Shown here one piece after another: positions 11,958 to 55,420 of a stretch of DNA of 64,000 nucleotides. A program made the translations under genes and the position numbers. Numbering within the stretch: position 1 is the first letter of the stretch; each line of letters begins with the position of its first letter. The notes under the pieces were generated by a model. The model ran no database searches. It was not told the DNA's origin and was given only the letters and a program-made list of their open reading frames with translations. Origin of the DNA: Ignavibacteriaceae bacterium (lineage in GTDB: Bacteria; Bacteroidota; Ignavibacteria; Ignavibacteriales; Ignavibacteriaceae); contig JALNWB010000001.1 in the NCBI GenBank assembly GCA_023231105.1, positions 18,276-82,275 on the forward strand, read 5' to 3'.

Positions 11958-12017
11958 GAAGAAAATTATAAATGTTAATATATGATTTATCTTATATAAT
12001 AACTTTGAGGAAAATAT

Positions 12018-17222: not shown

Positions 17223-17438
17223 ATGAAAGAAAATGGCAAATATTATCCTATAGAAAACGGATTAATCCCGTTAAAAGGTGGAAAGTGTTTTGAATATAAC
17301 TTACAAACCGAACTAACAAGAGAAAAATACCAACGTACTTTAGCAGCTACCATTATTTCGTCTTGCGAAATTATTTGCGAGAGAGACAATCCCATCCCTA
17401 CCCTTCCCCTTATCAAGGGGAAGGAGAATGAAAGTTGA
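17223..17438 (+). CDS. hypothetical protein whose C-terminus is encoded by a hairpin element
   Basis: GAAGGAAGGA precedes the ATG. The last roughly 15 codons (PIPTLPLIKGKENES) are read through the CCTTCCCCT/AGGGGAAGG hairpin, so the 3' end may be fortuitous. Confidence 0.35.
   Translation: MKENGKYYPIENGLIPLKGGKCFEYNLQTELTREKYQRTLAATIISSCEIICERDNPIPTLPLIKGKENES
17402..17424 (+). repeat. CCTTCCCCT-TATCA-AGGGGAAGG hairpin (family copy 1, inside ORF 17223-17438)
   Basis: A 9-bp perfect stem lies 18 nt upstream of late element copy A. Confidence 0.6.
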
Positions 17439-17476
17439 ATTTTCAACCCTTCGGAGAATAAATAAATAACTAAATC
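17436..17476 (+). promoter_or_regulatory. late regulatory element copy A (TTCAACCCTTCGGAGA-N12-CTAAAT)
   Basis: The core lies at 17442-17457 and CTAAAT at 17470-17475, 38 nt upstream of the portal ATG. Confidence 0.6.
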
Positions 17477-36420: not shown

Positions 36421-36440
36421 AAAGCGACCTCATCCCATTT

Positions 36441-36463
36441 CCCTCTCCTTGCGAAGGAGAGGG
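36441..36463 (+). repeat. CCCTCTCCTT-GCG-AAGGAGAGGG hairpin element (family copy 2)
   Basis: A perfect 10-bp stem is preceded by CGACCTCATCCC and lies 50 nt upstream of late element copy B. Confidence 0.7.
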
Positions 36464-36507
36464 TTGGATATTATTTAACACATAAAAGAACCAACCTATT
36501 AACAATC

Positions 36508-41575: not shown

Positions 41576-42360
41576 AAATTATTGATGAAAATATTGTACG
41601 GAGTCTAAGACGGTTCGGGCAAACGGTAAAGCATTACCCGGGCACGTTGTGCAGTTGCATTGGTGAAAATAACGGTGTGCCGTTATTAAACCATACTTGC
41701 AACCAGGGTTATTATTACGGAGCGCCGGAAACAATTATTGCAATACGCACGGCGATATCTTACAAATACCTAAACACGCCGCAAGGGGTAATTTATGACG
41801 GAGGCGCAACATTTACCATCCCAAGATTGAATTTAAGCGGAGCCGAACAGAGAGCTTATTCTGTTATTACGCACGGAGATATTTTGGTTTGTGATAATAA
41901 GACCAGACGTGACACAGATATACTGAAGCGTGGAACCCGTGATTTTATTTACGCTTTTGATATTACCGAAGTAATTGGCATATACCGTAACAACACAAAA
42001 TATGATGCAACGGATTACACAATTATTGAGGATGATTATAAAACGTTACTTGGTGATGACGGTTTACCGCTTACCGATGAGAACGGAGTACCAACGGGAG
42101 AAGTAAGAGACAAAGCGGATATTGTGGGTAAATTAATGGCGGTTGTTTGGGCAACCGGCAAAGGACCGGCAACGGGTGAAAGTTACACGGTGGAATTCAT
42201 TTGTGCTCAACAGTTTAAAGTATGGGAAGATGCGGGAAGTGATAGGGGAACGGATGAAAACAGACTACCGAAAAAGATGCTTACCGTATTAAGAAGATTT
42301 GTTACACCGGTGGAAAATAACCTTGACACCGTAGAAACGACACAGGAGTTGTACACATGA
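41569..42360 (+). CDS. virion structural protein (by position)
   Basis: An ATG ORF coupled by ATGA to polyvalent protein 3. Confidence 0.45.
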   Translation: MLKIIDENIVRSLRRFGQTVKHYPGTLCSCIGENNGVPLLNHTCNQGYYYGAPETIIAIRTAISYKYLNTPQGVIYDGGATFTIPRLNLSGAEQRAYSVITHGDILVCDNKTRRDTDILKRGTRDFIYAFDITEVIGIYRNNTKYDATDYTIIEDDYKTLLGDDGLPLTDENGVPTGEVRDKADIVGKLMAVVWATGKGPATGESYTVEFICAQQFKVWEDAGSDRGTDENRLPKKMLTVLRRFVTPVENNLDTVETTQELYT

Positions 42361-45300
42361 TAATTACATTATTTGGAAAGTCAATAAAATTTGGGAAGAA
42401 CCCGAACCAGATAGATATGTTTGCAACCGCCGGAGCGGAAAAGGAATTTGCGCCAGGGGATAAACGCAGACTTGAACTTACAAGCGGCGGGAAGTTGCGT
42501 TGGAAGAATGCGGATGAGGAAGGGAGTGGAAAGTTGAAGGTTGAAAGTGGAAAGAATGCAACTCCGAACAATCAAAACATTAGAGAGGAAAAAGGTTTAT
42601 TCAAAGAAGCGTATGAACAAACGCAAGATGAATATGCGCAAAAGATGTTCAGAGGACCAATAGCTGAAGTTAAAAAATTTAAAGACCCGAATGATTTGGA
42701 AGATATTGCAATCTCTAACGAACAGCACAAAGTTATTATTAAACACGCTATTCGAGAAGGTAAAGAGATCCCGGATGCAGTAATTGAACCTTACAAAAAT
42801 TCGCATTGGGCGAAGGAATATTTGAGTAAAAAAGTTGATTACTCACAAGAGCTTATAAACACCGCGCAAACAAGTAAGACTTTCGATAAGTTTTTAACAA
42901 ATGTTAGAATCCATGTATTCCCAAACGAGTTTCTTAAAAAAGAGTTGGGGTTAGGAGATGACAACGTACAAAATAGAAAAAAACTTAATGACTATTACAA
43001 CAGGCAAAAAGCAGAGCATAGAGAACAACGTAAAAAAGATAAAGAAGAAGGGGATAAGGCAATTGCCGAATTGCATGTAGATCAAATAGAAAAATTAGCA
43101 CTTCAACAGTATGGCGGGAAAGTGGGGAAAGAAAAAAAGATTGATGATGATAAAATTGCAGAGTTGTATAGGAATAGCCCGATATCTATTCAAGTGGATA
43201 AGATGAGCAATAAAGCGCAAGAAATTTATAATAACGCCGGGAACCAGGCAGAAAAACAAATTGCATTTGATCTTTGGAATTATGGGAATGGGATACAGGA
43301 TGAGTTTGTAGAAAAGTACGTTAAAGGGGAAAAGATAAGTACTGAAGATGTTATGGAAGTAAAGAGAATTGCAAACATATTGATAAAAGGCGCTGATGAA
43401 GAATTTGAGAAAGTAAAAAATGGGAGTAAGGCAAAAATTACGATCAAGAAAAAGAAAGAAGAGCCGGTTAAAAAAGAACCTTGGGAGAGAACTTTATCGG
43501 ATATGATACAAAATGAAATTACAAACCGTGAAATTTTTGGACCGGAAAGTTATCCTAAATGGATAACGGATAATACTAAAGTGGAAATTGCAGACCGAAG
43601 AACCGGAATTGTTTATGATCATTTTACTCTTGCAAGCCCAACACAGGAAAGATTAAAACATTATGGGAAACTTGCACATTATGAAATTATAAAGCGAGCC
43701 TTAGTTGACGGCAAGCCCGTACCGCCGGAAGTGTTGAGGGATTATCCGGAGTTGGAAAAGGAAACTTCACTTATAAGTGAATTACCTTTTACTGCATCAT
43801 TAAAAAAAGATTTAGAAAGTTACGGCGAAAAGACAAAAAATATTTTAGTTGAAGGGACGTATCAACCATTTGCTGATTGGTTTAAGAAACAATACCCGGA
43901 TCAAGAATTTAAAATCGGTAAACATCAAGATGGAGGACCATTTATCGCTATAACTGGAGGAGGAGAAATTAGATATTCAGCTTATCAGAAAGATAATTCT
44001 GAAAACGAAATAAAATTATCAAAGTTAAAAAAACGGAAAGAAGTTCTTGGGGAAAAACTTTACTCCGAGAAACTTAAAAATCACAAGAAAGTATCTAATA
44101 TTGGTTTTGGCACAAATATGAGGGGATATCAAAAAACGAAACAATTAAGTTTTAGAAGAGAAGATGAATTGCAACAAAAAATAAAAGAGATTAACGAAGA
44201 AATAAAAGATTTATTACCAAAGAATGTTAGTGAATCAAATAAAAGCATCTTCAAAAATTTATTTAAAGCCTTTGGGAAACAAATATCAATGTTTGGAGCG
44301 CAGCCATATCAAAAGGAAGGGCAGACGAAAGAGGGACGCGGAGGCACGTTGAAATTAACGAGGGACAGCTCGGGAAAGGGAGCGCATTGGAAGTTAGTCG
44401 GCAAAGGGCAATCGGCAGTGGACGGTCAGCAGTCGGCAGTTGGCAGTGGGCAAGAAAAACAAACTGGCGGAAAGATAATTACTCCGGCTAATGCTTTTGA
44501 ATTGTTGCAGGATAAAATTGGTAATAGTGTGTTACTGCAGGACAATGAAGGAAACTTGTTAGGTGAGGGAGCGTTACAGCTTGTGAACGAAAACAGTGAA
44601 GGCAATTATTCTTTGTTCTTAAAAGAGGCAAATGGATTTGATTCTCTCGTATCGATACCAAAGAACCAGGCAGTTGTACAGAAGGAAGACGGGATAAGTT
44701 TTAAGTTTGCAGATAAGAATATTTTAATATCAACAATTGAGAAAAGCAAAATTCCCAATAAGCCGGTTGAAATGGAAAAAGCCGAAGAGAACGCGAAACA
44801 TGCGCGTAACTTAGAGAAGATGCGGAATTTTAACGAATGGCAAAAGAAAGCCGACAGTTATGCAAGAACAGCGAACGGGCAAAAGGATTGGTTTTTTGGT
44901 GATATGGAAATTGCCGCCGACGCTGAAGGTTTAGAGTTTGGAGTGAAGAACCGCATCATTAAAAAAGCCGATACACTGTTTAAGGAAATAAAGAGGAACG
45001 CAACAAGGGATGATAAGGCTGAGATATACAGCGCACTAATCGGAGCATTTGAAGTGAAAAGCGTTGCTAAGGCAAAAGCTGTTATTTCCAACTTAAAGAA
45101 GAAGGGGTATGAAATAGACGCTGATCAGTTGGACCAACCGAAGGATAAAGAAAACTTTTTTACAAGGATAAAAATAAGCAAAGGGGAAAACGATCCTTTG
45201 CCGAAGGAGTTGCAGTTTGCAACCGGTGAATATGCCTTGGCATTTGAAGAGTGCGCGAAGAAACCAAATCCTTTAAGAGAAACAGAAATGAGTTTGGGCT

Positions 45301-46385
45301 TAAAGATCAATGCTGAAGGGGTGCCGGAGTTTAACACAATTAAGAAACAATTGTTTAACCTGGCCGGAGAAGGATTGGGACAATTATGGGTTACGGGTGG
45401 TTTACCGGGAAGCGGAAAGAGCAGCACACTTGGAGGTGAGTTTTATAAAAACAAAGTTTTGATAGATCCCGACAAAATAAAATATATGCTTGCTGAGGAA
45501 AGAGGAATATCGCAAGAAGAGGTAAATAAAAAGCCTTGGGAATTGCATGAGGAAAGTTCGAATATTGCCAAGCATTTGGTCCGTGAAGCAATACGCGAAA
45601 AGAAAGATGTAATTTATGATGTTACCATGAAGGGGACGGAAAATTTAAACGATCTTCTTTACATGGTGAACAGCGATACTTTTCAGGCGAATGCTGAGTT
45701 TATTCATCTCCCGATTGAAAAGGGAATTGAGCGCGACAAAGCAAGAGGAGAAAGCGGCGGAAGAAGCATAGGCGCTGATCTGTATAAGAAATTGTTTGGT
45801 GGTTATCCTACACACAAAGCTTTTTTTGAGTTGAAGGATAGTTTTGATAATTTTAGAGTATATGATAACAGCGCACCGTTGGGAGAAGGGGCAAAACTAT
45901 TTTATGTAAAAAATGACGGACAAGAAAAAATATTGCACCCGGGAATTCACGATGAATTCAAGAAATTTGGTTTGAAGCAAATGGGGAAATCACTATATTT
46001 GAGATACCAAAGGAGAAAATTAGTGAAAGCAATCGAACCCACACCCAAAACAAACGAAACCCAATTACCGGAAAGCGAAAAGTTAAAACTTCTTTTAGGT
46101 TTTAAAGAGCAAGGGATAGACCGGGACATTGATCCGGAACAAGATTTCTTTGCTTTGGGAATGCTGAAGATGCACGGATTGATCGATGAGAATATGAATC
46201 TAACACCGGAAGGTGAGCAGAAATATCAATTTCAATTTGGCAGTAAGTTTAGCAACATGAACGGAGAAGAAAGCGATGTTGAACAGGTCGTGAATCCGAG
46301 AAAAAATATTGCTGAAGAAAATAAAGAGAAAAAACCAGCCATAAAAGCATTCGGGAAAGAATTCAATAAAAAGAAACCTGAGTAA
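42357..46385 (+). CDS. polyvalent protein 3 (1342 aa) with duplicated H..IIK.A...GK.(I/V)P..V(I/L) modules and C-terminal Zeta-toxin-like P-loop kinase domain
   Basis: The Walker A motif LWVTGGLPGSGKSSTLGGEFY, together with VLIDPDKIK, HEESSNIAKHLVREAIREKKDVIYDVTMKG and RVYDNS, resembles Zeta toxin/UNAG-kinase domains. Two copies of a polyvalent-associated module are present (HKVIIKHAIREGKEIPDAVIEPY and HYEIIKRALVDGKPVPPEVLRDYPEL). A second internal leader is present (FKAFGKQISMFGAQ...). Confidence 0.85.
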   Translation: MIITLFGKSIKFGKNPNQIDMFATAGAEKEFAPGDKRRLELTSGGKLRWKNADEEGSGKLKVESGKNATPNNQNIREEKGLFKEAYEQTQDEYAQKMFRGPIAEVKKFKDPNDLEDIAISNEQHKVIIKHAIREGKEIPDAVIEPYKNSHWAKEYLSKKVDYSQELINTAQTSKTFDKFLTNVRIHVFPNEFLKKELGLGDDNVQNRKKLNDYYNRQKAEHREQRKKDKEEGDKAIAELHVDQIEKLALQQYGGKVGKEKKIDDDKIAELYRNSPISIQVDKMSNKAQEIYNNAGNQAEKQIAFDLWNYGNGIQDEFVEKYVKGEKISTEDVMEVKRIANILIKGADEEFEKVKNGSKAKITIKKKKEEPVKKEPWERTLSDMIQNEITNREIFGPESYPKWITDNTKVEIADRRTGIVYDHFTLASPTQERLKHYGKLAHYEIIKRALVDGKPVPPEVLRDYPELEKETSLISELPFTASLKKDLESYGEKTKNILVEGTYQPFADWFKKQYPDQEFKIGKHQDGGPFIAITGGGEIRYSAYQKDNSENEIKLSKLKKRKEVLGEKLYSEKLKNHKKVSNIGFGTNMRGYQKTKQLSFRREDELQQKIKEINEEIKDLLPKNVSESNKSIFKNLFKAFGKQISMFGAQPYQKEGQTKEGRGGTLKLTRDSSGKGAHWKLVGKGQSAVDGQQSAVGSGQEKQTGGKIITPANAFELLQDKIGNSVLLQDNEGNLLGEGALQLVNENSEGNYSLFLKEANGFDSLVSIPKNQAVVQKEDGISFKFADKNILISTIEKSKIPNKPVEMEKAEENAKHARNLEKMRNFNEWQKKADSYARTANGQKDWFFGDMEIAADAEGLEFGVKNRIIKKADTLFKEIKRNATRDDKAEIYSALIGAFEVKSVAKAKAVISNLKKKGYEIDADQLDQPKDKENFFTRIKISKGENDPLPKELQFATGEYALAFEECAKKPNPLRETEMSLGLKINAEGVPEFNTIKKQLFNLAGEGLGQLWVTGGLPGSGKSSTLGGEFYKNKVLIDPDKIKYMLAEERGISQEEVNKKPWELHEESSNIAKHLVREAIREKKDVIYDVTMKGTENLNDLLYMVNSDTFQANAEFIHLPIEKGIERDKARGESGGRSIGADLYKKLFGGYPTHKAFFELKDSFDNFRVYDNSAPLGEGAKLFYVKNDGQEKILHPGIHDEFKKFGLKQMGKSLYLRYQRRKLVKAIEPTPKTNETQLPESEKLKLLLGFKEQGIDRDIDPEQDFFALGMLKMHGLIDENMNLTPEGEQKYQFQFGSKFSNMNGEESDVEQVVNPRKNIAEENKEKKPAIKAFGKEFNKKKPE
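42527..42554 (+). repeat. tandem heptamer array, TTGAAAG type (4 units), inside polyvalent protein 3
   Basis: The units are TGGAAAG TTGAAGG TTGAAAG TGGAAAG. They encode SGKLKVESGK. Confidence 0.8.
44395..44450 (+). repeat. tandem heptamer array, CAGTCGG type (8 units), inside polyvalent protein 3
   Basis: The units are TAGTCGG CAAAGGG CAATCGG CAGTGGA CGGTCAG CAGTCGG CAGTTGG CAGTGGG. They encode VGKGQSAVDGQQSAVGSG. Confidence 0.85.
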
Positions 46386-46443
46386 TACAGGACGAGAAAC
46401 TTAATATAAGAGTTAACTTATAAGTTAAGTTTAAAGAAACAGC

Positions 46444-47493
46444 ATGAATTACCAAATTGTTTATGATATTGATTACAGCAAAGTCTATGAGCTGATAAAC
46501 CACATTGAACAGCAATTAGGCAAAGAAGCTGAGTTACCGCAAGCGATTGAAGCGGCGGGAGATTTAGCAACACAGACATGGTTAAATGTTGCGGCAAGTA
46601 AGTTTAAGCATTCGCAAGGGGGATATGCAAACGGAATTGTATCGGGGGCGAAATATCCTTATCAGAGCGATAGACTTCATTATAAGATCATTCACACCAG
46701 CCCACATGCAAAAGCCCTGGAAGAAGGTTTTGAAAGTTTTGACATGAAGAAGGCGCTTGATACTTCGCCAAAAGTAAGGATAGGAAAAGACGGTAAAAAA
46801 TATTTAGTTATTCCTTTTCAACACGGTACACCGGGAACGACAAGTTTTAGGGCAATGCCTAAAGAAGTTTATGATAAAGCGCCGGTTTACCAGCGCGAAG
46901 TGCTAATGGGGAAAGTGAAATATTCTTTGGATGAAACGAGAACCGGAGCAAAAAACTTGCGGCATTCCGTTGCTGTAAAAATGTTTAACGAGGGAAGCAT
47001 AAGGGGAGCGCGAGACCAAGCGGACGCAGAATTAATGAGAAGAAATAATCCTGAGCGTGTACAGCGAACAATGTATTCGTGGAGCGACAAAATTAAGAAC
47101 ACTGGACAACCGTTGCTTAGAGCGGAGCCAAAGGAATATACGATTAGCGATAAAGCAACCGGTGAAAAGTTTAAGGTAACATCTCCTCCGCACAAAACTT
47201 CTATCTACGAAAATATGGTGAGATTTCAAACCAATCCCAATGTGAACAGGTTTAATTTCGGTAAGTTTATTTTTAAACCGCACAACCAGACGGAGAACAT
47301 GAGGAACTCAAGCGCTTATTTTACTTTTAGAATTATGTCTGAAAATAGTCAAGGTTGGATTCACCCGGGATTAAGCGGAATGTTTATTTTAAGGGAAACG
47401 AAAGAAAAAATAGAACAGCCGGTTATGATGATGTTGGGGGAAGCGGCGAAAAAAGATTTGAGTACCACAATTTCGGCATTTAACCAAAGTTAA
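46444..47493 (+). CDS. virion structural protein (by position)
   Basis: This is the last gene of the head block and is followed by a strong intrinsic terminator. Confidence 0.45.
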   Translation: MNYQIVYDIDYSKVYELINHIEQQLGKEAELPQAIEAAGDLATQTWLNVAASKFKHSQGGYANGIVSGAKYPYQSDRLHYKIIHTSPHAKALEEGFESFDMKKALDTSPKVRIGKDGKKYLVIPFQHGTPGTTSFRAMPKEVYDKAPVYQREVLMGKVKYSLDETRTGAKNLRHSVAVKMFNEGSIRGARDQADAELMRRNNPERVQRTMYSWSDKIKNTGQPLLRAEPKEYTISDKATGEKFKVTSPPHKTSIYENMVRFQTNPNVNRFNFGKFIFKPHNQTENMRNSSAYFTFRIMSENSQGWIHPGLSGMFILRETKEKIEQPVMMMLGEAAKKDLSTTISAFNQS

Positions 47494-47564
47494 AGAATTA
47501 GTAAGTTTGTACTGCAATATAAATCATACCCGTGATTTAGAAAGCTCCTTTGAATAGTTCCTGG

Positions 47565-47597
47565 AATCCCGCTGCAAAGAGCGGGATTTTTCATTTT
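47565..47597 (+). terminator. intrinsic terminator ending the head block
   Basis: A 9-bp stem (AATCCCGCT/AGCGGGATT) is followed by TTTTCATTTT. Confidence 0.8.
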
Positions 47598-47649
47598 AAA
47601 CGGTTTGCAAAAAAAAGTGAAAATAATTTAAACTTTTTTTGAAAAAGAC

Positions 47650-47679
47650 TTGACTTTAATATACAAACGTTTGTATATT
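47650..47679 (+). promoter_or_regulatory. sigma70-type promoter (TTGACT-N18-TATATT) overlapped by a perfect 22-bp palindrome (operator)
   Basis: TTGACT lies at 47650-47655 and TATATT at 47674-47679. The palindrome AATATACAAACGTTTGTATATT lies at 47658-47679. Confidence 0.6.
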
Positions 47680-47712
47680 TGTAGTGAAAGAAAAACAAAA
47701 AAGGAACCTCAA

Positions 47713-48228
47713 ATGAAAAGCGAAAACAAACCTAAATTTAACCCAACACCGGAAATGATAACTGCAACAAAAGCTGTTCTTGCGGCGAAAGCATTAGTGC
47801 TAACTATTCGCCCGATAGTTGAAGGTTATGAAAAAGAAATCTTGGCAAAACATCGATTTACAAACAAAGCAGAAGTAGCAATGCTTACAGAGCATGGACA
47901 TGAAGCAAAGGAAAGAGTGATCTTAGATCCGAAAGAGAGCTACCAAATGGGTGATGAAGACTTTAACGCTTATTGGAACGAGTGCAAAGCGGAAAGAGAA
48001 AGAAACGGATTAAAGGTTGAGCGTGATGATTTTTGTCCTTTGTTAGTAGCTGAAAATTTAGAGCGACAAGCAAATAGGGTTCTTTTAGAAGCGATGCAAC
48101 CCATAACCGGTATTGACCCGGACGATCTTTGGAACATGGACCACCGAAAACAACTAATTGATTTGAGTATTAAATTAATTGCAGCTTATTGTAGAGAAAA
48201 TAATATTGATCTAGAGGGAGGGTTCTAA
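47713..48228 (+). CDS. hypothetical protein, first gene of autonomous cassette
   Basis: The ATG follows AAAAAGGAAC, downstream of the TTGACT-N18-TATATT promoter. The TTG at 47650 in the ORF track coincides with the promoter -35 element and I reject it as a start. Confidence 0.5.
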   Translation: MKSENKPKFNPTPEMITATKAVLAAKALVLTIRPIVEGYEKEILAKHRFTNKAEVAMLTEHGHEAKERVILDPKESYQMGDEDFNAYWNECKAERERNGLKVERDDFCPLLVAENLERQANRVLLEAMQPITGIDPDDLWNMDHRKQLIDLSIKLIAAYCRENNIDLEGGF

Positions 48229-48229
48229 A

Positions 48230-48706
48230 ATGAAAACCGAAGCCGCATTAGTTTCAAAAAGAATAAAGAAAGAATTGAAAGAACTTTTTCCCAAGATAAA
48301 GTTTTCCGTAACCAGCAGTAACTATTCCGGCGGGAATTCTGTTCGTATTGAATATAATGATTTTTTACCGACAAGTGTTTTGGAAGATCATTTTGAGAAA
48401 TATGAAGATGGGAAATTTGATAGTTCCCAAGATTTGTATGAGTACAAAAAAAACGCACATGAAGTAAATCCTAACGGTATTTTAGAAGCCCTCCCAAGAA
48501 CAAAATATTTGTTTTTCGAGCGGAGAGTTTCGCCGGAAATGAGAGAAGAAGCGAAAAAATATATTTTGAATACTTTTGATTGTGTCGAGAAACACGAAAC
48601 GCAAATACACACAGCAGTACATCGGTTAACCGTAAATATGGATTTAAGTTTTGGTTTTGACAAAAAGTATGCAGAAAATTTTCCTCACGGGTTATTTGAT
48701 TATTAG
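48230..48706 (+). CDS. hypothetical protein resembling a polyvalent-protein-associated (LPD-type) domain
   Basis: KRIKKELKELFPKIKFSVTSSNYSGGNSVRIEYNDFLPTSVLEDHFEKYEDGKFDSSQDLYEYKK resembles a domain I recall from conjugative-element and phage polyvalent proteins (..FP.VKFSV.S..ysGG.Si.v.w.dgP....v......Y..G.FDgm.D.Y.Y). The exact family name is uncertain. Confidence 0.45.
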   Translation: MKTEAALVSKRIKKELKELFPKIKFSVTSSNYSGGNSVRIEYNDFLPTSVLEDHFEKYEDGKFDSSQDLYEYKKNAHEVNPNGILEALPRTKYLFFERRVSPEMREEAKKYILNTFDCVEKHETQIHTAVHRLTVNMDLSFGFDKKYAENFPHGLFDY

Positions 48707-48736
48707 TTATTTTTCACTAAAGAAAAGGACAAAATA

Positions 48737-48928
48737 ATGATTTGCACTGAATGTAAGAAAGAAGCAAAAACAACTTATGCAGGATATTGGCATAATGATG
48801 GTAGCAAAGATGGCGTATGGGTGATCAAAGAAGGCGAGCATCTATGCGAAGATTGCGCGGAGAAAAGAACAGGGTTTAAAACACTTAGAGAGATTAATAA
48901 TTCAAGAAAACTGAAAAAATTAAAATGA
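48737..48928 (+). CDS. small zinc-ribbon protein
   Basis: The sequence reads MICTECKKEAK...HLCEDCAEK. Confidence 0.45.
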   Translation: MICTECKKEAKTTYAGYWHNDGSKDGVWVIKEGEHLCEDCAEKRTGFKTLREINNSRKLKKLK

Positions 48929-49167
48929 CAACCATACACGAAAAAATAGCAAAAACAATTCCGGCGGAGTTTGTGCATAAAGACTTTGAGGTATTGGAAC
49001 TAATTCACCAGCGGGGGAAATTACCGGCGGGGAAGTGGTATTCAATTCAAGAGTACATGAAGAAAGCCAATCTTAAAACACGGCGCAGTGTGTACCAAAG
49101 AATTGAAAGCGGGGAACTTGAGACAACGAAGATAGATAAATTCACTTTTGTAAAAGAGACCAAGTAA
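48925..49167 (+). CDS. small HTH (excisionase/MerR-like HTH_17-type) DNA-binding protein
   Basis: WYSIQEYMKKANLKTRRSVYQRIESGELETTKIDKFTFV follows the Xis/HTH_17 pattern. It is a candidate ligand for the 22-bp palindromic operator at 47658-47679. Confidence 0.5.
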   Translation: MTTIHEKIAKTIPAEFVHKDFEVLELIHQRGKLPAGKWYSIQEYMKKANLKTRRSVYQRIESGELETTKIDKFTFVKETK

Positions 49168-49200
49168 AAACGACCTCACTTTAATTCGACCTCACCCCTA

Positions 49201-49229
49201 CCCCTCTCCTTTGTAAGGAGAGGGGTTTT
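49201..49229 (+). terminator. intrinsic terminator; CCCCTCTCCTT-TGT-AAGGAGAGGGG hairpin (family copy 3)
   Basis: An 11-bp perfect stem is followed by TTTT. It closes the cassette at 47.6-49.2 kb. Confidence 0.75.
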
Positions 49230-49244
49230 CCACTTTAAACAATC

Positions 49245-49286
49245 TTCAAATTTCAACCCTTCGGAGAGAAACGCATTCCTTAAATA
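49245..49286 (+). promoter_or_regulatory. late regulatory element copy C
   Basis: The core lies at 49252-49267 and TTAAAT at 49280-49285, upstream of the gene at 49331. Confidence 0.6.
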
Positions 49287-49330
49287 ACGGCTGTATTTAA
49301 CAAAGTATTATCTCTTAGTATAACATCAAC

Positions 49331-50221
49331 ATGATTACACCACTTGCATCATTAGAAGTTACTGTTTCACCGCTTGGAAGCGAACTCAATATTTTTTGGA
49401 CTTTGCCTACAACATTGCCAACAAATTATAAAGTTTACATTTTCCAACGCAGTCAAACTGATGTTACGCAATTAGAGATAGACGAATACTTTTCTCACAT
49501 CGCCGACCTTTCAGCCTTTACTTACAACGGATTATATGTTTTTGATAAGATTAAAAACGGTCAGGAAGGGATGGGCGTTTATGAGGTTATTAACGGTTTG
49601 GTTTATTATTACAAAGCTGTAATTAGAGACGAAACCACGGGCGAATATTCCGCAACAATTTCAGCGAACGCAACACCTAACGCGGATGTACTTGTAGAAA
49701 TACATGACGGAAAAGAGATCGTAGCGAAAACATTAAGGAAGATGTTGGACGGATTGAAAAACGCAACCGGGAAGAAAATACAAGTAAGCAGAGATATTGA
49801 AGTTGTGAAACAATTTACCATGGGCGAGCCAAGAAACGATCAGTTTATGGTTGAACGGGTAAACGGAGCTAGCTATCAAAACTATTGGGGCAACATATTA
49901 TCAGCGCACGGGCAAGCTGTTATACTTGGCGACATGGATGCTGATGTAATTAGAGCAACGTACATAACTATAAGCGGACCGGACAGAAGAGACTTAATGA
50001 CCTCGATATGCAGAGGGCGCAAACCATTCTTAAAGATAATGGCAAAGAAATTAGGTGCGACCGACTGCCAGGTTACTATTGAGGGGGATTATTATAATCC
50101 TTCCTTTCACGGAGCTAACGTAGTGGGTACAACAATGATATTTACACTATTAATTGAGAACAAAACAAAAATAGATTACGCAGAAATTAATGAACATATA
50201 ACCGATATGAAGGTGGTTTAA
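49331..50221 (+). CDS. virion structural protein (neck/tail-completion candidate)
   Basis: It is the first gene after late element copy C. Confidence 0.45.
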   Translation: MITPLASLEVTVSPLGSELNIFWTLPTTLPTNYKVYIFQRSQTDVTQLEIDEYFSHIADLSAFTYNGLYVFDKIKNGQEGMGVYEVINGLVYYYKAVIRDETTGEYSATISANATPNADVLVEIHDGKEIVAKTLRKMLDGLKNATGKKIQVSRDIEVVKQFTMGEPRNDQFMVERVNGASYQNYWGNILSAHGQAVILGDMDADVIRATYITISGPDRRDLMTSICRGRKPFLKIMAKKLGATDCQVTIEGDYYNPSFHGANVVGTTMIFTLLIENKTKIDYAEINEHITDMKVV

Positions 50222-50222
50222 A

Positions 50223-50447
50223 ATGGCAAAAAAAATAAACGATGAAGAAAACTTTAGTATGGCCGAAGAACAAGTGAAAGCGTATGAAGGTAAAGAAGAA
50301 ATTGAGGTAAACCTCAATACTTTTATTCATTTGAAAAGTCTTCCAAGTTGGGCGAAGACCCGCTTAGAACATTATTTGGCACTTAATCCAAAAGCAAAAA
50401 CAGAAAATACGGTAGAGCAATGGGAAAAGATTTTAGCAAAACTTTAA
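50223..50447 (+). CDS. hypothetical protein
   Basis: A short ATG ORF with no TM segment. Confidence 0.45.
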   Translation: MAKKINDEENFSMAEEQVKAYEGKEEIEVNLNTFIHLKSLPSWAKTRLEHYLALNPKAKTENTVEQWEKILAKL

Positions 50448-51193
50448 AGCTTTGGTCAACCGGCGCTGAGGTAGAGCTTTGGCAGAAACTTCTTAAGCAG
50501 AAGGGATATTTTGCTGAAGAAGTTGACGGCGTATTTGGTGATAAGTTAAACGCGGCGACAAAGAAATACCAGGCAGCAAACGGACTTCTTAACGATGGAG
50601 TGGTAGGTAAAATTACATGGGGCTTTGCTTTTGCCAACGTTAAGGAAGTAAAAGACGAGCATATAAAAACCGAAGTTAATTTGCTGGCGTGGATAAAAAG
50701 AGATTTAGGTCCATACATAAAAAAGGCTATTGCCGGATCAATATTTACGGAAGATTGGCTTGGGGCAATCGCAGCTCGAGAAACTGGTTTTCTCATCATT
50801 AGGTATGTGAATAAAGGTTATGATCTAGACACAATAACTAAATTGATGAAAGGTGATTTCAATAACGGCATCTACCACGGATTTAGTTTTTGGCAGATCG
50901 ATATTAGATCGTTTCCGGAGTTTATTAATTCCGGTAAATGGTTAGACATTCAGGCGAGCGCAAATAAAGCGGTTGATGTTTTAACCGGTAAAATGAAATA
51001 TTTGAAAAAGCATGAAGAGAAACTTGGAGAGTATTGGTTTAGCCGTGCGATAACCGCGGCTTACAATTGCGGAGAAGGCAACGTAGAAAAAGCGATCTTA
51101 GCCGGGAAGGATATTGATTCACGGACTTTTAATAAAGATTATTCAAAAGAAGTATTTCGAATGAAAGAGGTTTATAAAAGTGTTAATATATAA
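50420..51193 (+). CDS. peptidoglycan hydrolase: PG_binding_1 domain plus SLT/lysozyme-like catalytic domain
   Basis: GAEVELWQKLLKQKGYFAEEVDGVFGDKLNAATKKYQAANGLLNDGVVGKITW is a PG_binding_1 repeat. ARETG (catalytic Glu), GFSFWQID and AAYNCGEGNV parallel the E-S, GLMQ and AYNAG motifs of lytic transglycosylases. Confidence 0.8.
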   Translation: MGKDFSKTLKLWSTGAEVELWQKLLKQKGYFAEEVDGVFGDKLNAATKKYQAANGLLNDGVVGKITWGFAFANVKEVKDEHIKTEVNLLAWIKRDLGPYIKKAIAGSIFTEDWLGAIAARETGFLIIRYVNKGYDLDTITKLMKGDFNNGIYHGFSFWQIDIRSFPEFINSGKWLDIQASANKAVDVLTGKMKYLKKHEEKLGEYWFSRAITAAYNCGEGNVEKAILAGKDIDSRTFNKDYSKEVFRMKEVYKSVNI

Positions 51194-51231
51194 GAAATTC
51201 AATAAAACAACTAATTTAGGAGAATAAGACC

Positions 51232-52953
51232 ATGCCATTGACATTAGAAGGAAAAACCTATACCGTGCCCGGAGTTTACGGAACGGTGGAGATTATAAAT
51301 CTTGGCAGTACAGCATTACCGGTTTTTAATACGCTGCTAATTGTAGCGGGAGCGAAAAAGGGTGTGCCGTATAATGCAACGGGGAAGAAAGGGTACGAAG
51401 TAATTCTACCGTTTTCATCCTTAAACACAGTGAAGGAATATTACGGAGTAAGTGATATTTCCCGCGCATTTGAGTATGCGAAAAAAGGAGGCGCTGGTGT
51501 TGTGTACTGCATTAACGCAGCATCTTTAACAAGAGCGAACGCAACAATACTTGATAACGCCGGAATACCGGTAAACGCTTTTGATGTTTATCCGCGAGAT
51601 AATTTTTACGGAGCGGCTGGGAATGACATTTCGATAACAATGTCAACCGCAACCAGCTTGTTAACTCTAACCATTATTCCGCCGAAGTTGACGAAGTTTT
51701 TAACAGCAAACGCAAGCACTTCATCCCCATTTATTACTCTTGGAGATGTTGAAGGACTTGCAGTTGGTATGGCTGTGAAAGTTTACAGCAACGCAATTAC
51801 AAGCGCACCGGATGCAGTAACTATTGTTAGTATTGATACCGTAAACAACCAGGTAGAACTTAGCGCAAACCCAACGGCGGCTTTTGCTACTTCGGCTTGG
51901 GCGCGTTTATTTGTGGAAGATACCGACAAACAAGCAACAACAACCTTTACCGCAACCGCAACAGTTACGGATGTGATCAACTGGATCAACTCCGGGAATA
52001 TTTTAACTGCGGATAGAAAAACTTACGCGGGAATAAAACCAACAACTTTAGCTAAAGTTTATTTGCAGAACATTACAAGTGCAACAAAAGGAACTTCTCC
52101 GGCAGCGACAGAAACCGGCGGCGGAGATTTTGATCTTCTTGCAGGTTTAGCGCCGCAATTATTTGAAGAGTTGACCAACTACACCAAACAAAGAATAAGA
52201 TTAGTGAACGTTGTAAGCAGCTCATCTTCAGTACATGCAGTTTATAAAACACTTGCGGTAACTGAGAGGGCGGCAAATAAATCGATACAGCTTATTCTTG
52301 GTTGTGCAACGGGAGACATTCTTCTTGCCGCAGATAACGCCGCGCACCCCAAAGCACGTGCAAAAGTATTAAATAGTGATGATTGTATTCTTGCCGGAAT
52401 GGGTATGGATGGCAAAGCATCTTATTTAAGTTTTGCTCCTTTTGTCGGAGGATTGATAAGCGCAAATTCCGTTAAACGGAACTTTACAAATGATGCAGTT
52501 GACGCGCAAAGCGTTGAAAAAACTTTCGGTGAGTTTAACAAAGAAACTGATACCGCCGGATACCTTGCAAACGGTGTATTGTTAATCGGTACGGGTAAGA
52601 ACGGGTATTACATCATTCAAGGAATTAACACCTACCAGAACCAAGCCACTATTTGGAATACAGACGATAAGAAAACCTATTTAATTCAGCAACGGCAGAT
52701 CGTGGACTACGTTTACGAAGGCTACAAGAACGAAATGGAACTTGGTGTAGGCGCTGATGGATATGGACCAAGCGTAGCATCGGTACAAGGCGGAAGAATA
52801 TTAAAGAAATATCAGGATGATGGATTTATTTCTGATTGGAAGATTGTAAACGCATACCAGGAAGGTAATGCAGTAATAACCGAGCCGCAGATCAATCCTA
52901 TTGATGCTGTTGATTTTGTCGGGTTTAAATTAAAAGTAATTGTTGACGCATAA
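51232..52953 (+). CDS. contractile tail sheath protein
   Basis: The N-terminus LEGKTYTVPGVYGTVEIINLG...LLIVAGAKKGVPYN is typical of sheath proteins. The protein is 573 aa and is followed by a tube-sized gene. Confidence 0.8.
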   Translation: MPLTLEGKTYTVPGVYGTVEIINLGSTALPVFNTLLIVAGAKKGVPYNATGKKGYEVILPFSSLNTVKEYYGVSDISRAFEYAKKGGAGVVYCINAASLTRANATILDNAGIPVNAFDVYPRDNFYGAAGNDISITMSTATSLLTLTIIPPKLTKFLTANASTSSPFITLGDVEGLAVGMAVKVYSNAITSAPDAVTIVSIDTVNNQVELSANPTAAFATSAWARLFVEDTDKQATTTFTATATVTDVINWINSGNILTADRKTYAGIKPTTLAKVYLQNITSATKGTSPAATETGGGDFDLLAGLAPQLFEELTNYTKQRIRLVNVVSSSSSVHAVYKTLAVTERAANKSIQLILGCATGDILLAADNAAHPKARAKVLNSDDCILAGMGMDGKASYLSFAPFVGGLISANSVKRNFTNDAVDAQSVEKTFGEFNKETDTAGYLANGVLLIGTGKNGYYIIQGINTYQNQATIWNTDDKKTYLIQQRQIVDYVYEGYKNEMELGVGADGYGPSVASVQGGRILKKYQDDGFISDWKIVNAYQEGNAVITEPQINPIDAVDFVGFKLKVIVDA

Positions 52954-54051: not shown

Positions 54052-54362
54052 TAAATCTTGACGGAAATGAGTGTTTACTCTCTGATGATTTCGCAAAGGA
54101 AATAGAAGATCGTTCTACTTTCAGGCAATTCTGGAAAGACCACTATGGATACAGCAGTAACGATGAACGGTATCTAACAGCTACTGATTCTCAGATATTA
54201 AGCGACTACCTTGATCTTAAAATAAAGGGCTTTAAAGAAAAATATCCGGACGCATTTATCTTAAAGACGGCGAAGAATAGAGCCTTGGATCCACGGTATG
54301 ATGAAAAAACAAATTTGGCATTCAAGGAAGCTTTAAAAAATATTGAGATAGTGCATATATAA
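53590..54362 (+). CDS. tail assembly chaperone, -1 frameshift product (gpGT-like)
   Basis: The -1 frame is open for 110 codons from 54030 to TAA at 54360-54362. It has no usable internal start until near its end. Entry would occur via A AAA AAA AAG at 54021-54030. Confidence 0.55.
54021..54030 (+). other. -1 programmed ribosomal frameshift slippery site (A9G)
   Basis: The run AAAAAAAAAG lies 20 nt before the frame-0 stop of the chaperone gene, and the -1 frame is open for 110 further codons. Confidence 0.6.
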
Positions 54363-54445
54363 AAGTTAATACAAGACTTGTTTTATAAAATAACATTTTA
54401 TAAGTTTGTATTGTCATTTAAAACAATTATTCAAAGGAAAAACAA

Positions 54446-54901
54446 ATGGACAAGGAAATTAACCACGAAAGCAAAGATCAAGGACTCGAGGATTTCCTAA
54501 AATTCAGAGCAGATCTTTTTAACCAACGATTAAAATCTTTAGGTATAAACGCCAAGATAAGCGTAAACACCGACGAAGAAAAGATGACATTTCTTAATTG
54601 CTTAAGAGAAATTACGGATGAAGATCCTCTCAAAGAACAAAAAACCGATTTAGAAAAATTTGTTGAGTTATATTTATCCTTTGGGGTACAGTGCATTGTT
54701 AAAGAGGGGATAGACGAGAAATCAAAACAAGAAGTTAAAACAATCCGGTTCCAAAACACAAACGGATTGAATGAATATGGACTTGACAATCTACCAGAAG
54801 GTTTAACCACCTCAGAAAAGTTTGACGGATACGGTGATTCATTTACGCTGATAACCTTTTCTAAAGACGGGGAATTTTTATGCCAAGGATTTTGGGGATA
54901 A
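54446..54901 (+). CDS. hypothetical protein (cassette between chaperone and tape measure)
   Basis: AAAGGAAAAACAA precedes the ATG. An AT-rich region with inverted repeats lies upstream. Confidence 0.5.
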   Translation: MDKEINHESKDQGLEDFLKFRADLFNQRLKSLGINAKISVNTDEEKMTFLNCLREITDEDPLKEQKTDLEKFVELYLSFGVQCIVKEGIDEKSKQEVKTIRFQNTNGLNEYGLDNLPEGLTTSEKFDGYGDSFTLITFSKDGEFLCQGFWG

Positions 54902-54929
54902 ACCATAACAGGCTTAAAGGAGCAGAGAA

Positions 54930-55127
54930 ATGAGCAAAAGAATCATCAGTTTTATTAGAATATTCTTCACTTTAATGTTGATTGATGCTGTTTATCTTGA
55001 GGCGGGGATATTCACAGCTATATCAATATCTTTAATTGCGATTGCATTAGAGATACAAGCAGAATTAAATAAGCATTATTTGAAAGAGGGAGATGACAAG
55101 CCACGGGCGGTGAAAAATGATATTTAA
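54930..55127 (+). CDS. small membrane protein (2 TM)
   Basis: AAAGGAG precedes the ATG. The predicted helices are IISFIRIFFTLMLIDAVYL and IFTAISISLIAIALEI. Confidence 0.5.
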   Translation: MSKRIISFIRIFFTLMLIDAVYLEAGIFTAISISLIAIALEIQAELNKHYLKEGDDKPRAVKNDI

Positions 55128-55350
55128 ACCGAAAGATATTCTGACAAAAAAGATAAAATTAAAAGACTCCTTAAAAGAGAATTATGAAGATAACTTTGAG
55201 GAAGATGAATGCAAGAAAATGTTAAGTGGAAAATGTAAAATACTAGAAATAAACGAAAATGGTGAATTTGCCATTGGCTATAGAGGTAAACTATTATTGG
55301 CATGGTTAGACTTAGAAGACTTTGAATTTGTAGTTGCAAATTCCATTTAA
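55117..55350 (+). CDS. hypothetical protein
   Basis: It overlaps the upstream gene by 11 nt and is followed by a strong terminator. Confidence 0.45.
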   Translation: MIFKPKDILTKKIKLKDSLKENYEDNFEEDECKKMLSGKCKILEINENGEFAIGYRGKLLLAWLDLEDFEFVVANSI

Positions 55351-55380
55351 TCACCAACTAACCCGCAATTAAATAAAAAT

Positions 55381-55420
55381 AAACCTCCGAAGTTTTTAAA
55401 ATTTCGGAGGTTTTTCATTT
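55381..55420 (+). terminator. intrinsic terminator
   Basis: The stem AAACCTCCGAA/TTCGGAGGTTT is followed by TTTTTCATTTT. Confidence 0.8.

Follow-up and report, generated by a model that had tools for sequence, protein, structure and literature searches.

An operon with exchangeable cargo and a palindrome in its promoter, between the head and tail modules of an Ignavibacteriaceae prophage, resembles acr-aca operons

Background

Why would a temperate phage carry, between its head and tail modules, a small operon with a promoter of its host's type and a perfect palindrome lying across that promoter? The locus that raises this question is a four-gene cassette in a 64,000-nt stretch of DNA from an Ignavibacteriaceae bacterium (the window, C1:18276-82275), which belongs to the 119-kb contig C1 of a 4.19-Mb genome in 307 contigs. 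Nearly all C1 genes lie on one strand. A tyrosine integrase (PF00589) at the left end of the contig and the host gene tsaD at its right end, 84-90% identical to that of metagenome-assembled genomes of Ignavibacteriaceae and Ignavibacteria, mark the element as the prophage of a temperate phage. Here we report the anatomy of the cassette, its insertion relative to an empty site, the exchange of cargo within a persisting frame, the fold class of its regulator, and the co-conservation of that regulator with an operator-like motif. On balance, we take the cassette to be an optional accessory operon in a cargo hot spot, which would give a pulse of expression from its host-type promoter and then be autorepressed at the palindrome by the winged-helix protein that its last gene encodes. 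We know of no prior study of phage-host conflict or of phage counter-defence in Ignavibacteriaceae or Ignavibacteria.

The known system that bears most directly on this reading is the acr-aca operon, an anti-CRISPR operon autorepressed by one of the helix-turn-helix (HTH) proteins Aca1-Aca13 or by the ribbon-helix-helix (RHH) protein Aca14 (PMC9410906, PMC6765145, PMC13551039). One inverted repeat always lies inside the core promoter of these operons, where the downstream-encoded Aca binds and represses (PMC9410906), and the Aca family has lately been widened to include the RHH protein Aca14, the control of neighbouring operons and anti-defence cargo other than Acr proteins (PMC13551039). LPD29, a domain of invader-side polyvalent proteins (PMC5512222), has been found in genes of aca4 operons, for which an anti-defence role was suggested (PMC13551039), and solo LPDs near phage structural genes have been proposed to ease early invasion (Iyer et al. 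2017; PMC5512222).

Results

An optional locus with exchangeable cargo

The cassette is flanked by the gene of a 349-aa head-module protein and that of a 296-aa tail-module protein, and relatives of the prophage (numbered L for loci and G for genomes) include the empty site. Homologues of the two flanking genes lie 140-300 nt apart in L059, L061, L062, L063 and L064, five more distant prophages of other Ignavibacteriales genomes in which the 296-aa protein is 43-53% identical, and the GTATTTAAC late leader is retained at the empty site of L059 at least. In a sixth genome, G355, the site is occupied by an LPD29 homologue in the opposite orientation. With five empty sites, and with other cargo in close relatives, the cassette is no conserved structural component of all relatives, and the first-pass annotation of this sequence, which had called it a moron expressed independently of the late programme, stands on this point.

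In close relatives, whose flanking genes are 84-94% identical to those of the window, the gene of the 80-aa HTH protein is last or next-to-last in six lineages (the window and five relatives) at 80-100% identity, with differing genes upstream (Table 1). The promoter and palindrome are found in all four HTH lineages whose 5' end is on the contig (window, L001, L010 and L016/17), including those with an unrelated first gene; in L014 and L015 the contig starts inside the cassette, which places its 5' end outside the data. L003/L022 and L025 carry an unrelated cassette in which both terminators are kept and both the palindrome and the HTH gene are missing. Judged from these sequence comparisons, the conserved unit is a frame of promoter-operator and terminal HTH gene with swappable cargo, rather than four genes. 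The idea of a four-gene accessory unit thereby survives in that the cassette is optional and insulated, and fails in that the four genes themselves are not what is conserved.

Table 1. Cargo associated with the terminal HTH gene in the window and in close relatives (sizes in aa)
Lineage	Cargo	HTH identity
Window	upstream of HTH: P1, LPD29, zinc ribbon	reference
L001/L002/L019	upstream of HTH: P1 (75% identical), 152, 58, 69, 225	100%
L010	50, 96, 58, 71, 225; then HTH; then 110	86%
L014	upstream of HTH: 88, 97, 222	80%
L015	upstream of HTH: 131, 51, 95	93%
L016/17	upstream of HTH: 101, 70, 221, 79	89%

The most recurrent cargo of the sister cassettes is a 221-226-aa protein with the conserved motifs WTLSHLYRALAN and CTGHYTDDYAYDA, usually encoded directly before the HTH gene (L001 10630-11307; L010 1054-1731; L014 561-1229; L016 732-1397) and with no Pfam match. 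It is absent from the window, where LPD29 and the zinc ribbon stand in its place. Pfam searches with ten sister-cassette cargo proteins returned nothing significant.

Exchange of this kind might also mark a recombination or homing hot spot for selfish or neutral DNA, in which the promoter and palindrome were kept by recent common descent and no coordinated regulation takes place. The occupant of L003 and L025 is of a sort that such a hot spot would attract: behind a promoter-like element flanked by a 15-17-nt inverted repeat, it encodes a protein with an HNH-endonuclease-like motif (HIDHK..NLQPLW), typical of homing genes and without Pfam support here, and a small terminal open reading frame (ORF). 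The opposite-orientation LPD29 gene at the site in G355 points the same way, as does a GC content of 0.361 in the cassette that hardly differs from the phage's (0.386 across the window, 2.5 points higher, and 0.39-0.41 in the flanking genes). We nevertheless consider this explanation improbable. The promoter-palindrome is nearly base-perfect among close relatives despite replacement of the adjoining terminator hairpin and first gene, an operator-like motif recurs where the HTH protein is only 40-50% identical and the cargo unrelated, and the packing of the genes, with overlapping stop and start codons, points to one operon.

A predicted host-type promoter crossed by a unique palindrome

The first-pass annotation had placed a promoter, a palindrome, two terminators and four genes in this interval, and all were located where it had put them (Table 2). 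The -35 and -10 hexamers, TTGACT and TATATT, are separated by a spacer of 18 nt and score 10/12, the best plus-strand site in 45000-52000. Sigma-70-like matches as a class are not enriched in the region (12 found vs 16.6 expected), so the promoter call rests on position, score and conservation rather than on counts. Upstream regions of host genes provide a second standard: TAnnTTTG is 2-3-fold enriched there at -50..-30 and TTGAC about 1.7-fold at -70..-60, the composite TTGAC-N16-19-TAnnTTTG occurs in 8 host upstream regions vs 0 coding controls, and a Shine-Dalgarno (SD)-like motif precedes about 31% of host starts vs 6% in a control window. Since TTGACT-N18-TATATTTG fits the host composite, "host-type promoter" is a fair description. 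It had also been described as the only such promoter with an operator in the window, which is correct for the strict pattern TTGAC-N16-19-TAnnnT: the contig has one further intergenic match, C1:4339, and this lies outside the window in the early divergent region. An A/T-tract upstream of the -35 hexamer of the cassette may possibly act as an UP element.

The palindrome AATATACAAACGTTTGTATATT spans the spacer and the -10 box, which puts a perfect inverted repeat inside the core promoter. It is the sole perfect palindrome with arms of at least 10 nt in the 119-kb contig, and a search of the 4.19-Mb genome that allowed up to 4 mismatches found no second copy. We considered, and rejected, its membership in a regulon of the main repressor or of a late regulator: there are no other copies or half-sites in the prophage or the host genome, and a site unique in both is not the operator of the main prophage repressor regulon. 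A palindrome scan of IMG/VR returned nothing beyond two contigs already known. Downstream, the first ~17 nt of the 5' untranslated region (UTR) are kept in L001, L010 and L016, with divergence beyond; a structured motif like those bound by Aca1 and Aca2 was not found in this leader, which is predicted to be unfolded (minimum free energy, MFE, 0 kcal/mol).

The host genome has a dispersed family of perfect 22-bp palindromes of its own, GAGAC(T/A)TGCCATGGCA(A/T)GTCTC and variants, at about 30 sites on many contigs (for example C4:49026, C17:1282 and C168:1946). This family accounts for most of the 40 perfect 22-bp palindromes of the genome and looks like a repetitive extragenic palindromic (REP)-like element or a dispersed protein-binding site.

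The terminal gene encodes a predicted winged-helix protein of a very small family

The 80-aa HTH protein is basic (pI 9.6). Its AlphaFold2 (AF2) model has two N-terminal helices, an HTH at residues 41-61 and a beta-hairpin wing at 65-78. Foldseek matches to this model are weak and are all winged helices, led by the Xis of mycobacteriophage Pukovnik (probability 0.96) and followed by BldC and ArsR/HlyU, and HTH_17 (PF12728) is matched by the homologues P0026 (25.3 bits, below the cut-off of 27) and P0028 and P0030 ("weak" precomputed matches). The guess from the letters alone that this was a Xis/MerR-like HTH is supported by the model, by its best Foldseek probability and by these homologues. 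None of the Pfam families of known Acas (HTH_3, HTH_24, HTH_29, KORA, DUF1870, YdaS_antitoxin) matched the protein at E <= 1. An exhaustive profile search of 1.84 billion representatives found 13 members of the family. The best reading of the model and its matches is that these are undescribed HTH_17-like regulators.

Because the fold is of the excisionase type, with Pukovnik Xis as the match of highest probability, it has to be asked whether the HTH protein is instead the phage's excisionase (recombination directionality factor) or a regulator of late genes, with the small genes as hitch-hikers and the palindrome bound by another factor. In favour of such a role, the gene is always followed directly by the terminator, and then the late element, that lead into the 296-aa gene, and distant HTH homologues are likewise found within packaging and head modules. 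Several features make this very improbable. The HTH gene lies about 65 kb from the integrase, and it can be dispensed with, being absent from L003, L025 and five distant relatives that keep the late element and the flanking genes. No copy of the palindrome occurs near any of the five late elements, nor anywhere else. Excisionases, moreover, usually bind direct repeats in the attP arms.

The operator-like motif recurs with the HTH gene in two distant lineages

Among close relatives, the palindrome and the HTH gene co-occur perfectly, and both are absent from L003 and L025. Two distant phages, with HTH proteins 40-50% identical, extend the association, as ACAAAC..TTGTATATT recurs over the -10 box of the promoters of their HTH operons. 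In L044 (HTH 40% identical, cargo unrelated), a divergent two-gene operon adjoins the portal and capsid genes; its best promoter, TTGACA-17-TATATT (11/12), contains ACAAACGATTGTATATT, one mismatch from the window sequence and at the same promoter position, for which 0/200 shuffles gave a match, and a second TGTACAATTATTTGTA repeat lies just upstream of the -35 hexamer. In L045 (HTH 51% identical, cargo unrelated), ACACAAACAAATGTGTATATT occupies the corresponding position ahead of the first gene, with a weak -35 hexamer, TTGCAT. The contig of L046 holds no upstream sequence. Promoters do not normally share spacer sequence. The best evidence at hand that the HTH family recognises the ACAAAC..TTGTA core is therefore its presence in three lineages whose cargo is unrelated.

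Between a 92-aa Cys-rich gene and the HTH homologue, L048 (3840-3925) and L050 (2570-2660) contain a tRNA/tmRNA-like 3' end, GGTTCGACTCCGAGCAGCTCCAC.

Cargo proteins

The four genes are tightly packed, with a 1-nt gap, a 30-nt gap, a 4-nt ATGA stop/start overlap, and SD-like sequences before each; this packing indicates one operon. P1, the product of gene 1, could be assigned to none of the families of Pfam, PHROGs, NCBIfam or PADLOC. An invariant CPLL..A motif is shared by its 20 homologues, and its AF2 model is a confident all-helical fold (pLDDT 93.3, pTM 0.82) for which Foldseek found no fold match in the PDB (all E > 0.9, TM < 0.3) and one uncharacterised phage protein in BFVD. P1 homologues elsewhere adjoin genes for SSB, MazG, DUF4942, DUF6884 (twice), DpdA, H-NS and SLFN_AlbA_2, neighbourhoods of early-region or conflict type.

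Gene 2 had been suspected of encoding a domain associated with polyvalent proteins and conjugative elements, and it matches LPD29 (PF18847) well above the Pfam gathering threshold (E 3.9e-12; 47.1 bits vs a cut-off of 27), residues 8-99 aligning with positions 6-91 of the 93-position profile. LPD30, the reported partner of LPD29, was not found, and IMG/VR held no close relatives of the gene. LPD29 homologues 36-39% identical occur in related Ignavibacteriales prophages at other positions and orientations (G022:C32:108647-108979, G355:C558:2746-3045); that of G022 lies about 9 kb upstream of the homologue of the 296-aa gene, within a 259-aa open frame. The zinc ribbon proposed for gene 3 is present as a CxxC...CxxC pattern, although its Pfam matches are all sub-threshold (DUF4428 at 8.4e-4, Gin, DZR_2).

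Sequence searches of PDB chains with P1, LPD29 and the HTH protein gave nothing below E 0.1, and NCBIfam and PADLOC had no match to any of the four cassette proteins. As to toxins, antitoxins and defence proteins, PADLOC assigned 0 families to the four proteins and Pfam no toxin domain. A 3.9-kb nucleotide query matched none of 50,697 phage records.

Discussion

Comparison with known systems

By analogy, acr-aca operons appear to be the closest known counterpart of the cassette, for which the first-pass annotation had listed anti-defence as one option only. The likeness lies in a strong promoter with an inverted repeat in its core; in small, poorly conserved cargo genes followed by a 3'-terminal gene for a small (<150 aa; here 80 aa) conserved DNA-binding protein; and in cargo that is swapped among related phages while the regulator is kept, at a variable spot of the (pro)phage. 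The acr spot of Mu-like Pseudomonas phages, reportedly described by Bondy-Denomy et al. in 2013, is said to lie inside the head-gene region as well. The cassette differs in that searches of Pfam, PHROGs, NCBIfam and PADLOC linked none of its cargo genes to a known Acr, in that its regulator is predicted to be an HTH_17/MerR-Xis-like winged helix outside the Pfam families reported for known Acas, in that it has no structured 5' UTR motif and its binding and repression are predictions from sequence, and in its host, an Ignavibacteriaceae bacterium. Because its cargo matches no known Acr or other anti-defence protein and its regulator lies outside the Pfam families of known Acas, we say that the locus works like an acr-aca operon, not that it is one.

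Two other systems invite comparison. With polyvalent proteins the cassette shares a bona fide LPD29 domain in gene 2, and the phage encodes giant multidomain proteins including the 1342-aa neighbour of the cassette; LPD29 is here, however, a free-standing protein of 158 aa under the cassette's own promoter, rather than one domain within a giant protein that the virion delivers. P2/P4-type prophages have hot spots that, according to Rousset et al. in 2022, reportedly often hold defence systems; these too are fixed sites flanked by conserved phage genes, with content that varies widely and is exchanged horizontally. The cassette, by contrast, has no PADLOC match, its small cargo is without enzymatic domains, and it keeps a conserved regulator and operator frame, which is not a feature of those hot spots.

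The comparison with morons carries a rival explanation of its own. Morons, reportedly described in lambdoid and other temperate phages by Juhala et al. in 2000 and Hendrix et al. in 2000, have two structural hallmarks that are both seen here, a promoter and terminator of their own (predicted in our case) and flanking genes that are adjacent in related phages, and the cassette, like morons, is placed among the late genes of a temperate phage. What defines a classical moron is expression while the prophage is repressed, often together with a deviating base composition; the GC content of the cassette differs by 2.5 points from that of the window. A point of difference is the dedicated operator and regulator frame, which the cassette keeps while its cargo changes. 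It could all the same be a classical lysogeny-expressed moron that benefits the lysogen, through superinfection exclusion or anti-phage defence, with the HTH protein merely setting the level. The integrase and divergent early region of a temperate phage, a host-type promoter with terminators inside the late region, variable presence, and the defence systems that prophage hot spots between conserved genes are said to hold would all suit such a function. We regard it as unlikely on the following grounds. PADLOC gives no match, and the proteins lack the enzymatic or membrane domains that exclusion and defence systems typically have. A strong promoter that its own product would close is better suited to a pulse on entry than to constitutive expression in the lysogen. 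LPD29 belongs to invader-side polyvalent proteins (PMC5512222) and has been reported in Aca-regulated operons (PMC13551039). The two explanations overlap, since lysogens show low-level expression of acr-aca operons too.

A predicted entry pulse closed by autorepression

For the favoured reading, an optional operon that represses itself, the predicted promoter use, timing, binding and repression can be set out in order. Once phage DNA enters the cell, the housekeeping RNA polymerase of the host would start at the cassette promoter, and transcription would be independent of the phage late elements, with a terminator on each side as insulation. A burst of the cargo proteins P1, LPD29 and the zinc ribbon would follow, and the last, translationally coupled gene would yield the 80-aa HTH_17-like winged-helix protein. 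A dimer of this protein would bind the palindrome, through its core TACAA-N4-TTGTA, over the spacer and -10 box and block the polymerase, and expression of the cassette would drop to a low steady level, in the lysogen too. The cargo would most likely counter host defences or otherwise ease takeover; by analogy with acr-aca operons, an anti-defence role is plausible.

The host does have a defence system against which such cargo could act, a type I CRISPR-Cas locus that encodes Cas1, Cas3, Cas7 and Cas6. The locus lies on contig C25, outside the window (C25:4286-13186 and C25:13675-25465), where cas1, cas4-like, cas3, cas5/7/8-like and cas6 genes in an I-B-like order accompany an array of 137 repeats (GTTTCAATTCCAATATGGTTCGATTGGGAG) and 136 spacers of 33-38 nt. 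A comparison of the spacers with the prophage and its relatives gave only chance matches of 15-21 nt, and none of the 136 targets the prophage. The spacer result neither supports nor excludes an anti-CRISPR function.

Several observations weigh against a self-repressing anti-defence operon. The relatives have TATATTGC or TATATTGT at their -10 region and not TAnnTTTG. The HTH protein of the window has no Pfam match (E <= 1), its model is moderate (pLDDT 76), and all of its Foldseek E-values are at least 0.08. The perfect co-occurrence of palindrome and HTH gene in close relatives amounts to about one evolutionary event; the stronger indication of co-conservation comes from two distant lineages only (L044 and L045), and the more distant HTH relatives L047 and L048/L050 have no such repeat. 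The lack of any spacer against the prophage takes away self-targeting as an argument for an Acr. Finally, searches of Pfam, PHROGs, NCBIfam and PADLOC gave the cargo of the window and of its relatives no match to a known family of anti-CRISPR, anti-restriction or defence proteins, a weak negative, as none of these databases is specific to Acr proteins and no dedicated Acr library was used.

A more specific proposal, possible and held here with more doubt than confidence, is that the 80-aa protein founds a new Aca-type family, recognising TACAA-N4-TTGTA over the -10 box, that controls immunity inhibitors still to be described in phages of Ignavibacteria and their neighbours. The candidate inhibitors would be the P1 family, the solo LPD29 protein, the zinc ribbon and the 225-aa protein of the sister phages, acting for example on type I CRISPR-Cas. 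Three things are new here: the regulator family together with the conserved core of its proposed operator, a host from the Ignavibacteria, and a family of cargo proteins with a fold unmatched in the PDB.

If the autorepression model is right, the cassette is a compact switch made of one promoter, one palindrome and one 80-aa protein; it offers a short list of candidate counter-defence proteins from Ignavibacteria, and it supplies a functional context for the uncharacterised LPD29, noted independently in Aca4-regulated operons. The HTH family is very small (13 in 1.84 billion) and, in the five of the 13 members whose genomic context was read, always lies in structural-gene regions with unrelated cargo, which makes it a usable anchor for discovery by guilt by association. 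Should the model be wrong, a clean case of a cargo hot spot whose regulatory frame persists would remain.

Terminators and module boundaries

The 349-aa head-module gene ends at 47493, and the terminator that follows it varies in sequence: at its position the relatives have four different hairpin sequences (window/L001, L010, L016 and L025), each with a T-run, which argues for selection on terminator function. The right terminator is invariant in the window, L001, L003 and L025 and kept in all close relatives irrespective of cargo; a simple terminator scan missed it because its T-run is short. The late element beyond it, copy C of five in the window, is also kept in relatives. A C-rich terminator of similar sequence, of the CCTCAyCCC...CCCTCTCCTT/AAGGAGAGGG type, stands before each of the late elements A, B and C (17380-17441, 36430-36480 and 49190-49230), and terminator plus late element looks like one composite module boundary. 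As part of this recurrent composite, the right terminator is probably an original feature of the site and not the cassette's own. The claim that the cassette is insulated by terminators on both sides thus needs qualifying: both are present, and the right one is probably native to the site.

Table 2. Features of the cassette and its immediate borders (window coordinates)
Feature	Position	Strand	Remarks
Intrinsic terminator of the head-module transcript (left insulator)	47563..47597	+	stem 47563-47590, 11 pairs, T-run; dG -16.8 kcal/mol, z -3.3
A/T-tract, imperfect inverted repeat	47604..47645	+	arms 47604-47622/47627-47645, 79% complementary; kept in L001, L010
-35 hexamer TTGACT	47650..47655	+	identical in L001, L010, L016; TTGACA in L044
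Perfect 22-bp palindrome AATATACAAACGTTTGTATATT, proposed operator	47658..47679	.	arms 11+11, 100% complementary; core TACAA-N4-TTGTA; present in L001/L002, L010 and L016/L017
-10 box TATATT (47674-47679), extended to TATATTTG	47674..47681	+	TAnnTTTG, motif enriched upstream of host genes
Predicted 5' UTR, short, A-rich, SD AAGGAA	47686..47712	+	start placed from -10 position; MFE 0 kcal/mol
Gene 1 (P1), 171 aa	47713..48228	+	all-alpha, conserved FCPLLVAEN motif, no annotated relative
Gene 2, 158 aa, solo LPD29-domain protein	48230..48706	+	PF18847; phrog_15549, unknown function
Gene 3, 63 aa, CxxC...CxxC zinc-ribbon-like, basic tail	48737..48928	+	from sequence
Gene 4, 80 aa, winged-helix HTH_17/MerR-Xis-like, proposed autorepressor	48925..49167	+	from structure model and homologue matches
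Intrinsic terminator (right insulator)	49200..49230	+	perfect 12-pair stem 49200-49226; dG -21.5, z -4.1
Copy C of the late element, with the leader of the gene for the 296-aa tail-module protein	49233..49321	+	repeat families D1 + D3; neighbour, outside cassette

Other elements and neighbouring genes

A second small cassette of the same layout follows the tail-chaperone gene (window 54363-55420). It has a GTTAAT...TAAAAT element that contains the palindrome ACAAGACTTGT, three small genes (151, 63 and 77 aa, no Pfam matches; no evident DNA-binding gene), a strong terminator at 55384-55412 (dG -18.7), and late-element copy D. We considered ACAAGACTTGT (54371-54381) as a second site for the 80-aa HTH protein and set it aside, as its half-site spacing is 3 vs 4 nt and nothing else supported it.

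A repeated element, AAAnGTTAAT...TAACA, has three copies in the window (11967-12004, 51175-51212, 54358-54395) and is also the promoter-like element of the alternative cassette (L003 9159-9200; L025 743-782), where it forms an inverted repeat of 15-17 nt. The element may represent another class of promoter or operator in the phage. A guess that the terminal small ORF of the L003/L025 cassette encodes an RHH protein drew no Pfam support.

At the left end of the contig, outside the window, C1:417-4313 comprises the integrase gene, a truncated serine-recombinase-like ORF, the gene of a secreted or membrane protein of 451 aa and, on the minus strand, an ORF of 154 aa. The ORF adjoining the integrase has Recombinase and Zn_ribbon_recom domains without the resolvase catalytic domain. 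In the divergent early region at this end, a TTGACA-N17-TATCTT promoter (C1:4339) faces the 154-aa ORF, which has no Pfam match.

Just upstream of the cassette site, the 1342-aa protein (42357-46385) has a Zeta-toxin/AAA_33 kinase domain at residues 1012-1172 (PF06414, 1.7e-11), and its N-terminal third is strongly divergent among close relatives (L001, L003). It looks like a polyvalent protein, probably delivered with the virion.

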